Part shown: one piece after another, positions 1,350-54,609 of the stretch
Numbering within the stretch: position 1 is the first letter of the stretch
Layout of the letters: each line of letters opens with the position of its first letter
Source: Mycobacteriales bacterium
GTDB taxonomy: Bacteria; Actinomycetota; Actinomycetes; Mycobacteriales; SCTD01
Assembly: GCA_040902655.1 (NCBI GenBank)
Contig: JBBDWV010000049.1
Coordinates: forward strand, 20,926-84,925
Length of the DNA: 64,000 nucleotides
Reading direction: 5' to 3'
Position numbers and translations under genes: made by a program
Notes under the pieces: generated by a model
The model's database searches: none
Seen by the model: the letters and a program-made list of their open reading frames with translations, nothing else
Told to the model about the DNA's origin: nothing

Positions 1350-2203
1350 ACCGCCACCTCCGCCGGCCGTCCGCCGAGCAGCAGCAGGTAGCCGTCCTCG
1401 AGCGTGGCGTCGACGAGCTGCGCCCCGGGCGGCGGGTCGCCGACGTGGTGGAACAGCCCCGAGCCGAGCCGCCAGCCGGCCAGCGCCGCCGGATCCCGGA
1501 CCTCGTCCACCCACACCCGGTCGGCGGCGACGGCGACAAGCTCGGGCACCGTCCCGGTGAACAGCGTCCGGCCGCGGTCGACGACGACGACGCAGGAGCA
1601 CAGCGCCGCGACGTCCTCGGTCTGGTGCGTCGACAGCAGCACCGCGCGCTGCTCCCCCGCCTGCGACATCAGGTCGCGGAAGCGCAGCCGCTGCTCCGGG
1701 TCCAGCCCGGCCGTCGGCTCGTCCAGGACGAGCAGCCCCGGCTCCCCGAGCAGGGCCTGCGCGAGGCCGAGCCGGCGACGCATACCGCCCGACAGCGCCC
1801 GCACCTTCTTGCCTGCGACGTCCTCCAGCCCGACCAGCCCCAGCACCCGCCGCACCTCGTCGTGCCGGGCCCGCCGGTCGGTGTGCTCCTTCAGGACGGC
1901 GACGTAGTCGATCATCTCGAAGGTGGTGAACGCGCGGTGGAAGCCGGGCTCCTGCGGCAGGTAGCCGAGCCGGCGTCGGATCTCCACCCGCTCCTGCGGG
2001 TCGGCAGGGTCCAGCCCGAGCAGGCGAAGCTGCCCGGCATCGGGCGCGAGAACCGTCGCGACGACACGCAGCAGCGTGGTCTTGCCGGCGCCGTTCGGGC
2101 CGAGCAGCCCGGTGACGCCGGTTCCGGCGCTCAGCGTGACCCCGTCAAGGGCGCGCTTCCTGCCGTAGGACTTGACGAGCGAGGTCGCGCGGACGGCGGT
2201 CAT
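1346..2203 (-). CDS. ABC transporter ATP-binding protein
   Basis: ORF 1346..2926 trimmed to ATG 2203 (MTAVRATSLVKSYG). Walker A GPNGAGKTT, signature LSGGMRRR, Walker B LLVLDEPT. ATGA overlap with the anti-sigma stop. Confidence 0.9.
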   Translation of the reverse strand: MTAVRATSLVKSYGRKRALDGVTLSAGTGVTGLLGPNGAGKTTLLRVVATVLAPDAGQLRLLGLDPADPQERVEIRRRLGYLPQEPGFHRAFTTFEMIDYVAVLKEHTDRRARHDEVRRVLGLVGLEDVAGKKVRALSGGMRRRLGLAQALLGEPGLLVLDEPTAGLDPEQRLRFRDLMSQAGEQRAVLLSTHQTEDVAALCSCVVVVDRGRTLFTGTVPELVAVAADRVWVDEVRDPAALAGWRLGSGLFHHVGDPPPGAQLVDATLEDGYLLLLGGRPAEVAV

Positions 2204-4232: not shown

Positions 4233-6182
<1,950 letters not shown>

Positions 6183-31610: not shown

Positions 31611-32399
31611 CTAGTCGTTGCCCTGGAGGTAGGACAGCAGGCGGAGGATGTTGAGGTAGAGGAAGACCAGTCCGACGATCAGGCCGAAGCCCACCCGCCA
31701 GGACTCCTTCTCGGCCACGCCCGTGGCGACCATCCGGTCGGCCTGGTCGAAGTCGAGCACGAAGGTGAGGGCGCCGAAGGTGATCAGGCCGAGGGTGAAC
31801 AGGATCGCGATCGGCCCGCCGGTGGTCAGACCCAGCGCGTCGCCGGCGCCGAAGGCGTTGGCCAGGATGTTGAGGAAGAAGACGGCCACCATGCCGACCA
31901 GGCCGAAGGTGACGACCTTGGCGAACTTCGGCGTCGCCCGGAGCTTGCCGCTCTTGTAGCCGAACAGCACCGCACCGAAGACGGCGGCTGTGCCGATGAC
32001 CGCCTGTACGACGATGCCGCGGTACTGGCCCTCGTAGCTGGCGCTGATGACGCCGAGGAACACGCCCTGTGCGCCGGCGTAGGCCATCACCAGGCCGGGG
32101 CTGACCGACTTCTTGAAGATGTTGACCATCGCGAGGGCGAAGCCGACGAGACCGGCGAGCAGCGCGAGGCCGATCGGCACCTGGAGGTACCACGACGCGG
32201 CACCGACGCCGACCACGATCGAGAGCAGGATGCCGGTCTTGACGATGACGTCGTCCATCGTCATGCGCTGCGGCGTGTCGTAGATCGCCGCGACGTCGTC
32301 GGGGGACGGGGCCGGCGTGTGGAAGCCGACACCCTGGGAAGCGGTGCGCAGCGGCTCGCTGCGCGCGAAGACGGGGTTACTGGACTCCATGCTGCGCAT
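31611..32399 (-). CDS. Bax inhibitor-1/YccA-family membrane protein
   Basis: ORF trimmed to ATG 32399 (MRSMESSNPVF). Seven hydrophobic helices. The ending FLYLNILRLLSYL is typical of the family. Confidence 0.8.
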   Translation of the reverse strand: MRSMESSNPVFARSEPLRTASQGVGFHTPAPSPDDVAAIYDTPQRMTMDDVIVKTGILLSIVVGVGAASWYLQVPIGLALLAGLVGFALAMVNIFKKSVSPGLVMAYAGAQGVFLGVISASYEGQYRGIVVQAVIGTAAVFGAVLFGYKSGKLRATPKFAKVVTFGLVGMVAVFFLNILANAFGAGDALGLTTGGPIAILFTLGLITFGALTFVLDFDQADRMVATGVAEKESWRVGFGLIVGLVFLYLNILRLLSYLQGND

Positions 32400-32499
32400 C
32401 TGCGTGCTCTCCTCTGCGCGACCCTCGGGCGGGGCCGTGCGCTGGGTACAACGTACGCGGTCCGGGTTCTGTGCCCGGCCCGAACGCAGCGGCTCGCGG

Positions 32500-32576
32500 T
32501 GCCCCCGGCGGGAGTCGAACCCGCAACTCAGCCGGTTTAAGCGGCTCGCCGCACTGCCAGATTGGGCTACGGGGGC
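32500..32576 (-). tRNA. tRNA with anticodon UAA (Leu codon UUA) but class-I architecture (5-nt variable loop)
   Basis: Hand fold of the minus strand: acceptor GCCCCCG/CGGGGGC, discriminator A. The D region GCCCAATCTGGCAGTGCGGC is 20 nt with a 3-bp stem. Anticodon arm AGCCG-CTTAAAC-CGGCT, variable GAGTT, T arm GCGGG-TTCGACT-CCCGC. No CCA is encoded. Confidence 0.75.
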
Positions 32577-32612
32577 GGCCACCTCACGGTACGTGCTGCA
32601 CGCCAGGGGGGC

Positions 32613-33398
32613 TCAGCCCACGCCGGCGAGCCCCTTCGCCCGGGTGAAGACGGCATCCAGCATGGGCTCGGTCAGCCGGCCGGTGAAGGTGTTCTGCTGG
32701 CTGACGTGGAAGCAGCCGAGCACGGTCAGGCCGCTCGGCAGCGTCACCTCGGCGCCGTGCGCGAACTTCGGCACCGGCGCGGGCACCGCCTCCCCCGCGC
32801 CGCGCAGGGTCGGCCACAGCGCCGCCCAGCCGTAGCCGCCGAGCACCACCACCGCCCGCACCGTCGGCTGCAGGAACCGCCACTCCGCCGACAGCCACGA
32901 CGCACAGGTGTCCCGCTCCGCCGGCGTCGGCTTGTTCGCCGGCGGAGCACAGCGCACGGGCAGCGTGATCCGGATGTCGACCAGCGACTGCCCGTCGTAC
33001 GCGCTCGTGGAGGTGGGGGAGGCGGCCAGGCCGACCCGGTGCAGCGAAGCGAACAGCCAGTCCCCGCTGCGGTCGCCGGTGAAGATCCGGCCGGTGCGGT
33101 TGCCGCCGTGCGCGGCCGGCGCCAGCCCGACGGCGGCGATCCTCGCGTCCTGCGGCCCCCAACCGGTGACCGGCCGGCCCCAGTAGTCCTGGTCGGCGAA
33201 CGACGCGCGCCTGGCGGTCGCCACCTCCTCGCGCCAGGCGACCAGCCGCGGGCAGGCCCGGCAGACCGAGGAGCGGGCGTCCAGGTCCTCCAGCGATCGG
33301 GCGGTCGCTGCGAGACGCGCCACGTCACCCGGTTCGTGCGCCACCGGCGTCGCGGGCGTGGCACGGTCGCGCGGGTGGCCGCTGCCCGGCGGGATCAC
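32613..33398 (-). CDS. uracil-DNA glycosylase superfamily protein (family 5 UdgB-like)
   Basis: CRACPRLVAWRE (Fe-S Cys), GLAPAAHGGNRTGRIFTGD, and the C-terminal HVSQQN block. GTGA overlap with the ppx stop. Confidence 0.8.
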   Translation of the reverse strand: MIPPGSGHPRDRATPATPVAHEPGDVARLAATARSLEDLDARSSVCRACPRLVAWREEVATARRASFADQDYWGRPVTGWGPQDARIAAVGLAPAAHGGNRTGRIFTGDRSGDWLFASLHRVGLAASPTSTSAYDGQSLVDIRITLPVRCAPPANKPTPAERDTCASWLSAEWRFLQPTVRAVVVLGGYGWAALWPTLRGAGEAVPAPVPKFAHGAEVTLPSGLTVLGCFHVSQQNTFTGRLTEPMLDAVFTRAKGLAGVG

Positions 33399-54538: not shown

Positions 54539-54609
54539 CTCCCGGGGGAGGAATCGAACCTCCGTTCAGGGATTCAAAGTCCCTTGTCCTGCCCCTAGAC
54601 GACCCGGGA
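54539..54609 (-). tRNA. tRNA-Gln (anticodon UUG)
   Basis: Hand fold: TCCCGGG-TC-GTCT-AGGGGCA-GGAC-A-AGGGA-CTTTGAA-TCCCT-GAAC-GGAGG-TTCGATT-CCTCC-CCCGGGA-G. 71 nt with all stems paired (one G-U). Confidence 0.9.

Follow-up and report, generated by a model that had tools for sequence, protein, structure and literature searches.

A long variable arm is treated as the defining feature of bacterial leucine tRNAs in textbooks and in recent reviews. The closest described departure from this rule is the type I (class I) tRNA-Leu(CAA) of Streptomyces coelicolor, which has a variable loop of 5 nucleotides (nt) and is charged, together with type II tRNA-Leu, by the single leucyl-tRNA synthetase (LeuRS) of that organism (PMC6614811). 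Here we describe a short-armed tRNA-Leu gene with the anticodon UAA, located on the minus strand of a 64,000-nt stretch of a Mycobacteriales bacterium (assembly GCA_040902655.1, contig JBBDWV010000049.1, positions 20,926 to 84,925). This whole stretch is referred to as the window, and coordinates are counted from its first letter.

Charging by the S. coelicolor enzyme (ScoLeuRS) needs the five variable-loop nucleotides, including nucleotide 48, as well as U8-A14 and C74. Five nucleotides are the minimum variable-loop length for good charging, A73 is dispensable and is no identity element, and the leucine-specific domain of ScoLeuRS enables type I charging (PMC6614811). When its anticodon is changed to UAA, tRNA-Leu(CAA) replaces bldA, as stated in the citation of Pettersson and Kirsebom 2011 given in PMC6614811. 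Comparative work indicates that the regulatory role of bldA may be confined to Streptomycineae (PMC4255298). In addition, a short-loop tRNA-Leu(TAG) is present in a Mycobacterium tRNA cluster (PMC6582537). In the searched literature, nothing on a natural short-armed tRNA-Leu(UAA) was found beyond PMC6614811 and the remark in PMC6582537.

The original prediction, made from the letters of the window, had offered three readings of the gene: an unusual class I-shaped tRNA-Leu(UAA), a UUA decoder with altered identity, or a degenerating gene. The first is supported by conserved position, compensatory changes in 30 short-armed relatives, leucine-type features and the Streptomyces precedent. In our assessment, the gene is most probably a functional class I (type I) tRNA-Leu(UAA), serving as UUA decoder of a Frankiales-like uncultured actinomycete. 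It is a smaller oddity than was then stated, because the type I precedent has already been published (PMC6614811). The accompanying statement that bacterial tRNA-Leu are class II stands as a rule, with S. coelicolor tRNA-Leu(CAA) as its published exception.

Anatomy of the window tRNA gene

The gene was called as tRNA-Leu(taa) at 32498-32576 (-) by ARAGORN, and the Rfam tRNA model RF00005 matched 32500-32576 (-) over its full length (1-71), scoring 52 bits against a gathering score of 29. Together with an arm-by-arm parse, these analyses delimit the following features:

32500-32576 (-), type I tRNA-Leu(UAA) gene, 77 nt to A73 (ARAGORN, Rfam, arm-by-arm parse)
32548-32567 (-), D region GCCCAATCTGGCAGTGCGGC, 20 nt (Rfam model, parse, alignment of relatives)
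32530-32546 (-), anticodon arm AGCCG-CUUAAAC-CGGCU, stem 5/5 paired (ARAGORN, Rfam, parse)
32525-32529 (-), variable loop GAGUU, 5 nt, ending in U48, extra arm absent (parse)
32508-32524 (-), T arm GCGGG-UUCGACU-CCCGC, stem 5/5 paired (Rfam, parse, covariation)

Read from 5' to 3', the gene is composed of GCCCCCG UA GCCCAAUCUGGCAGUGCGGC G AGCCG CUUAAAC CGGCU GAGUU GCGGG UUCGACU CCCGC CGGGGGC A. The acceptor stem (GCCCCCG/CGGGGGC) is paired at 7 of 7 positions in the parse, and U8 and A9 stand between it and the D region. The D stem comprises 3 bp (GCC/GGC) followed by a C13-C22 mismatch, marked as non-standard by cmscan, and the long D loop carries A14 and A15 together with G18 and G19. The anticodon UAA is located at 32537-32539 (-) in the loop CUUAAAC. 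The discriminator is A73; the next two bases (32499-32498) are CC, followed by G, so that CCA is incompletely encoded. The perfect acceptor, anticodon and T arms, the CTTAAAC loop with anticodon UAA, A73, the 20-nt D region with its 3-bp GCC/GGC stem and the 5-nt GAGTT, all noted in the original prediction, were thus recovered by the parse, and the anticodon arm by ARAGORN and the Rfam model as well.

Features shared with canonical bacterial tRNA-Leu are the 3-bp D stem, the 13:22 mismatch, A14, A15-U48, G18 G19, and A73. A class II tRNA-Leu is characterized by a variable arm of at least 10 nt with a stem-loop, and in the window tRNA this segment is the 5-nt GAGUU. The gene has the traits of type I tRNA-Leu, namely U8-A14 and a variable loop that counts 5 nt or more and includes nucleotide 48, and differs from the Streptomyces molecule in carrying UAA in place of the anticodon CAA (PMC6614811).

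Conservation, selection and decoding

Relatives of the locus were gathered as metagenomic loci and loci of metagenome-assembled genomes (MAGs) through homologues of BaxI, the gene downstream of the tRNA, and as 46 GTDB species-genome loci through BaxI alignment; single loci are cited by L numbers. Wherever the upstream DNA of a metagenomic locus was present, a tRNA-Leu(taa) was found ~80-200 nt ahead of BaxI, and one also precedes BaxI in 38 of the 46 GTDB genome loci. The eight loci without it belong to Nocardioides and Aeromicrobium genomes, one Actinomycetota MAG and one truncated contig. Arm parsing distinguished 30 distinct short-armed sequences, with variable loops of 5-6 nt and D regions of 15-20 nt, derived from Frankiales/Mycobacteriales MAGs and from seven Nanopelagicales-type loci. 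Eight distinct sequences are long-armed, with a variable arm of 15 nt and the same D-arm plan as the short forms; one of them is the 84-nt tRNA-Leu(UAA) of Yinghuangia soli (Streptomycetaceae, locus L051). The D-loop motif GGCAG is common to short-armed and long-armed alleles, and the order eno-ppx-(udg)-tRNA-BaxI holds in Nanopelagicales too. An exact search of 185,579 species genomes with the 33-nt segment extending from the anticodon to the T stem gave no match. The original prediction had named long-armed copies in relatives as a sign against a genuine variant. Such copies do occur, at 8 loci, but the short form is commoner and varies independently, and does not represent a one-off deletion.

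Stem covariation was evaluated in a MAFFT alignment of the 30 short-armed sequences, using 19 stem pairs, 500 shuffles and controls with slid partners. Standard pairing was observed in 99.6% of stem cells, and changes on both sides in 10 of the 19 pairs (74 cells). For four of five measures (cells paired, pairs changed on both sides, cells changed on both sides, and covariation score) none of the 500 shuffles matched the observed value, and sliding the partners by 1-3 columns reduced pairing to 38-59%. All four tested stem pairs of the anticodon arm co-vary among relatives. No variation occurs in the whole set at A14, A15, G19, U48 and A73 or in the T loop. The nearest relative, L017, shares the 20-nt D region with the window tRNA and differs from it in two compensated pairs (31:39, G-C in the window and C-G in L017; 50:64, C-G and U-A, respectively), which points to selection even in the sub-lineage with the 20-nt D region. 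Judged from these comparisons, the window gene is a natural and conserved short-armed variant, and no broken gene.

Some relatives show peculiarities of their own. In a Frankiaceae MAG (L016, 1546-1621) the anticodon loop is UUUAAGU, with U32, G37 and an A31-C39 mismatch, in a tRNA otherwise of the normal short-armed type. About 50 nt upstream of the tRNA of L023 (631-706), the first 18 tRNA nt (gcccccgtagcccaatca) are repeated about three times in tandem, and these copies are either a recombination scar or an assembly artefact.

Comparison of the upstream regions of relatives disclosed a short conserved box, represented in the window by:

32586-32591 (-), TACCGT, a -10-like TANNNT hexamer and candidate promoter, starting 15 nt upstream of the mature 5' end

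Of 44 distinct loci, 36 have a TANNNT hexamer, mostly TACCGT, that starts 12-22 nt before the tRNA 5' end, compared with 2 of 44 in a control region. It is suggested to be the -10 box of a dedicated tRNA promoter. Scans for the sigma-70 consensus and for intrinsic terminators around the tRNA gene found nothing.

Codon usage was counted in 56 open reading frames (ORFs) of the window, chosen by third-position G+C and totalling 18,970 codons. The count was 1 for TTA, 66 for TTG, 707 for CTC and 1,224 for CTG. The lone TTA is the tRNA's own anticodon inside an over-extended BaxI ORF, which leaves no genuine TTA, as had been noticed earlier among the window genes checked by hand. The window tRNA thus has the hallmark of a bldA-type tRNA, the anticodon UAA corresponding to the rarest leucine codon of a high-GC genome. 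The mechanical BaxI ORF (31611-32582, -) reads through the tRNA gene, whereas BaxI truly begins with the ATG at 32399. A similar over-extension by automatic gene callers could mask the tRNA or give a spurious TTA codon. In the Nanopelagicales loci (G+C content 0.43-0.47), TTA makes up 2-3% of codons and the tRNA in the slot is still short-armed. If this short tRNA is the UUA decoder of Nanopelagicales, it must work efficiently as a leucine tRNA.

The proposed pathway begins at a gene standing in a conserved eno-divIC-ppx-udg/BaxI region, in a slot that in some relatives, and apparently in one Streptomycetaceae genome, is taken by a long-armed, bldA-like tRNA-Leu(UAA). The gene would be transcribed from its own promoter, with the TACCGT box as the -10-like element, and its transcript would be trimmed at both ends and then completed with CCA by the CCA-adding enzyme. 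By analogy with the Streptomyces enzyme, LeuRS would charge it with leucine without reading the anticodon, and the encoded features required by Streptomyces LeuRS are all present in it. The product is expected to decode UUA and possibly UUG, through U34 wobble. It is known that LeuRS, SerRS and AlaRS ignore the anticodon. From these analyses, leucine appears to be the best-supported identity of the window tRNA, because the leucine D-arm plan and A15-U48 are kept and because a type I precedent exists in Streptomyces.

Several points weigh against this interpretation. The minimum free energy fold of the single sequence is not the cloverleaf (-38.3 vs -33.7 kcal/mol). This is common for GC-rich tRNAs, and we gave it little weight, relying on the covariance model and on stem covariation. 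With 2 extra nt (GC), the D region is longer than that of any relative except L017. Positional orthology with bldA rests on one Streptomycetaceae locus (L051), whose tRNA presumably resembles S. coelicolor bldA and in which the gap between tRNA and BaxI is ~0.5-0.65 kb and eno, ppx and udg do not lie within 6 kb. A second, long-armed UUA decoder or a CAA isoacceptor may exist elsewhere in the genome. Finally, the Streptomyces type I tRNA-Leu(CAA) is not a substrate of E. coli LeuRS (PMC6614811), so that charging of the window tRNA would depend on features of the lineage's own LeuRS; leuS is absent from the window.

The direct neighbours of the tRNA gene are those named in the original prediction, a udgB-like and a BI-1-like gene, here assigned by Pfam:

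32613-33398 (-), UDG superfamily gene, upstream neighbour (Pfam UDG, E 5e-18)
31611-32399 (-), Bax inhibitor-1/YccA family membrane protein gene (BaxI), downstream neighbour (Pfam BaxI_1, E 2e-69)

The udg stop codon and the tRNA start are separated by 36 nt. The BaxI protein is identical to NCBI MEX2291334.1, and its closest relatives are from Frankiales/Frankiaceae MAGs and soil metagenomes. In the window, which has a G+C content of 70-75%, the order on the minus strand is enolase, DivIC, Ppx/GppA, UDG, tRNA, BaxI and a trypsin-like protease. A GDSL lipase gene (+) and a gene for a CBS-domain pyridoxal phosphate (PLP) enzyme (-) follow past the protease, and mfd, glmU, tRNA-Gln and metG lie farther along. 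The tRNA locus is part of the core chromosome and no mobile island.

In nearly all relatives, udg and the tRNA are split by a ~4-kb block of GGDEF-EAL and MFS transporter genes, divergent from the tRNA, and this block is missing from the window at 32577-32612. Between the tRNA and BaxI, the motifs GGGCACA (32470-32476, -) and CGTACGTTGTA (32447-32457, -, with TACGTT inside it) are found again at the corresponding position in many relatives, and they are probably promoter elements of the BaxI gene. The tRNA-Gln(UUG) at 54539-54609 (-), beside a glmU-like gene, is ordinary (Rfam, 60 bits).

Origin of the short form and rival explanations

The rival that survives best concerns the origin of the gene and not its function. 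It holds that the short gene was brought to the locus by recombination from a type I UUR-decoding family, proposed to include CAA isoacceptors and phage-borne copies, possibly with the aid of a neighbouring HNH homing endonuclease. We regard this as possible, but rather doubtful. In its favour, the BaxI tree, a plain neighbour-joining tree with no support values, shows long-armed alleles interspersed with short-armed ones. Furthermore, loci L018 (long-armed) and L019 (short-armed) are 96% identical from the tRNA 3' end through BaxI, with the tRNA and its upstream DNA replaced, and an HNH endonuclease gene of L018 sits in the replaced upstream DNA. Phage-type HNH genes (phrog_10822, E 1e-34 to 1e-46) are located directly upstream of the tRNA in several loci. 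The tRNAs and HNH genes compared are:

L018, 5822-5905, long-armed tRNA
L019, 2314-2389, short-armed tRNA
L008 and L018, 5126-5809, HNH gene
L017, 1543-2289, HNH gene (short-armed locus)
L031, 4828-5796, HNH gene (long-armed locus)
L016, 1276-1428, HNH gene remnant

Related HNH genes also stand beside short-armed tRNA-Leu(UAA) in the phage contigs L095, L101, L114, L117, L119, L124, L126 and L133. However, the window itself has no HNH gene, and HNH genes accompany both types of allele, so that the direction of transfer is not inferable. Computed without the anticodon arm and the variable region, the identity of the window tRNA core is 0.91 with a high-GC type I tRNA-Leu(CAA) and 0.80 with the best long-armed allele, but the first similarity is inflated because the pattern used to gather the CAA and phage sets fixes portions of the T arm and of the acceptor 3' strand.

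Taken as they stand, the sequences suggest allele replacement within the type I UUR-decoding family, and no loss of the arm in place. The company of HNH genes gives a weak hint of endonuclease-associated swapping between class I and class II forms at a core tRNA locus. More tentative still, and in our view somewhat unlikely, is the broader proposal that the sole UUA decoder, the positional bldA counterpart, is class I-shaped across a wide range of actinomycetes, from soil Frankiales-like to freshwater Nanopelagicales, with class I/II swapping by recombination at this locus promoted by phage-type HNH homing endonucleases and a reservoir in phages. If true, a mobile tRNA-allele system would act on a core translational gene, and the class II status of bacterial tRNA-Leu would be evolutionarily labile.

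Short-armed leucine tRNAs were also sought in viral contigs. The pattern combined a spacing of 13-14 nt from the anticodon loop to the T stem, allowed only by a short variable loop, with GGGUUCGAnUCCC as a T-arm segment and with CNNGGGC plus A73 at the 3' end of the acceptor. For the CAA anticodon, the corrected pattern CTCAAAN{13,14}GGGTTCGANTCCCNCCNNGGGCA was run on the viral contigs. The short-armed build was matched in 26 viral contigs with CAA and in 57 with UAA. Many matches belong to tRNA arrays of phages, spread over all G+C contents, and short Leu(UAG) and Leu(GAG) genes are present in these arrays too. A scan of metagenomes with a pattern one base short in the acceptor 3' strand gave five loci, including four with type I tRNA-Leu(CAA); the pattern favours an anomalous acceptor, and these loci prove the existence of such tRNAs but are no fair sample. 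Short-armed leucine tRNAs are evidently far commoner than the searched literature suggests.

The short tRNA-Leu genes of viral contigs L066-L146 are 74-79 nt long (UAA, CAA, UAG and GAG) and come from contigs with G+C contents of 0.32-0.73. One annotated tRNA-Leu, 76 nt long and from a Sinorhizobium jumbo phage, shows 81% identity to the window tRNA. In the high-GC, actinophage-like contigs L122, L125 and L139, a single short tRNA-Leu(UAA) is located near endolysin/lysis or tail genes. Neither BaxI nor UDG was found beside the tRNAs of high-GC viral contigs. Integrases were sought there as a mark of an integrative element, and this candidate was rejected, with endolysin, tape-measure and methylase genes found instead. 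In locus L064, two short-armed tRNA-Leu(CAA) genes, at 1965-2037 (+) and 4533-4607 (-), lie 2.5 kb apart on opposite strands, one of them with an acceptor 3' strand shorter by one G. Either duplication of an attachment site or an error in sequencing a G run may account for this.

We have also addressed the possibility of an altered identity, according to which the tRNA accepts an amino acid different from leucine, for instance phenylalanine through A35, A36 and A73, or is served by a dedicated synthetase, and UUA is recoded or deliberately mistranslated. The class I shape removes one feature that marks leucine tRNAs, A35, A36 and A73 overlap the phenylalanine identity set, and tRNAs for deliberate mistranslation exist in Streptomyces in the form of the tRNAProA/ProRSx system. 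Against these stand the missing marks of other identities, with neither G3:U70 (alanine), a long arm (serine) nor G-1 (histidine; the -1 base is C) present, and the absence of any synthetase-like gene beside the tRNA in the window or in 50-odd relatives. The leucine-type D arm and A15-U48 are invariant, and a non-leucine reading of UUA would be very costly in Nanopelagicales. In addition, leucine is the amino acid charged on the type I tRNA of Streptomyces, and bldA function is restored by the UAA version of that tRNA, the latter as cited in PMC6614811. An altered identity, as raised by the original prediction, is consequently unsupported and very improbable.

The least probable explanation, already proposed at the outset and rejected here on account of conserved position and compensatory changes, is a degenerating gene, that is, a bldA-type long-armed tRNA which lost its arm by deletion and is no longer used: 8 distinct relatives do have a long-armed allele at this position, the window makes essentially no use of UUA, so that selection on its decoder could be weak, and the D loop has a 2-nt insertion relative to most relatives, but every stem is kept through compensatory changes in 30 distinct short-armed sequences, the short form is also found in AT-rich Nanopelagicales where TTA is common, the -10-like box is retained, and short and long forms share a core identity of 0.59-0.80, with differences at many positions outside the arm that argue against a simple recent deletion.

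Comparison with known systems

The only documented bacterial exception found to the long-armed rule is the CAA isoacceptor of S. coelicolor, to which the short UAA form adds a natural, widespread and selected case. In many lineages, the short form appears to take the place of the bldA-type tRNA. Close relatives with either form at the same site offer natural material on the recognition of both shapes by LeuRS, and short-armed leucine tRNAs are attractive scaffolds for genetic-code engineering. In annotation, short leucine tRNAs should not be dismissed as pseudogenes.

The closest counterpart is the S. coelicolor type I tRNA-Leu(CAA), with which the window tRNA shares origin from an actinomycete, the 5-nt variable loop, U8-A14, A73 and, as predicted, decoding of a UUR codon (PMC6614811). 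Its backbone reaches up to 0.91 core identity with the high-GC CAA sequences recovered here, under the search pattern described above. Differences are in the anticodon UAA, in the variable loop (GAGUU vs ACAGC) and in the longer D loop. Leucylation was shown for the S. coelicolor molecule, and is predicted for the window tRNA.

With bldA, which is dispensable for growth and gives temporal control over developmental and antibiotic genes containing TTA, the window tRNA shares the anticodon UAA, matching the rarest codon of a high-GC genome, and its CUUAAAC loop is also that of the Yinghuangia allele. A BaxI gene is found downstream of the tRNA in a Streptomycetaceae genome too, and a similar -10-like box upstream. 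In contrast, the variable arm of bldA, a type II tRNA, measures 17 nt (PMC6614811) and the window tRNA is type I, and their acceptor sequences are different (GCCCCCG in the window vs GCCCGGA/G). The engineered S. coelicolor tRNA-Leu(CAA->UAA) resembles the window tRNA in having a type I leucine body with UAA. According to the cited account, this construct suppresses the bldA phenotype, which shows decoding of UUA by a molecule of this kind to be possible in an actinomycete. It was made in the laboratory, whereas the window gene is natural, chromosomal and widespread.

Animal mitochondrial tRNA-Leu(UUR) has the same type I shape and UAA. Unlike the window tRNA, it is an organellar molecule whose D and T loops interact weakly and which has a mitochondrial LeuRS of its own; the window tRNA has the canonical G18 G19 and the T-loop UUCGA. 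ScoLeuRS does not charge animal mitochondrial tRNA-Leu(UUR) (PMC6614811). The short tRNA-Leu genes of mobile and phage arrays (PMC6582537) are similar in being class I-shaped leucine tRNAs in actinobacteria and phages, but in contrast to them, the window tRNA is a single gene in a conserved region of the core chromosome.

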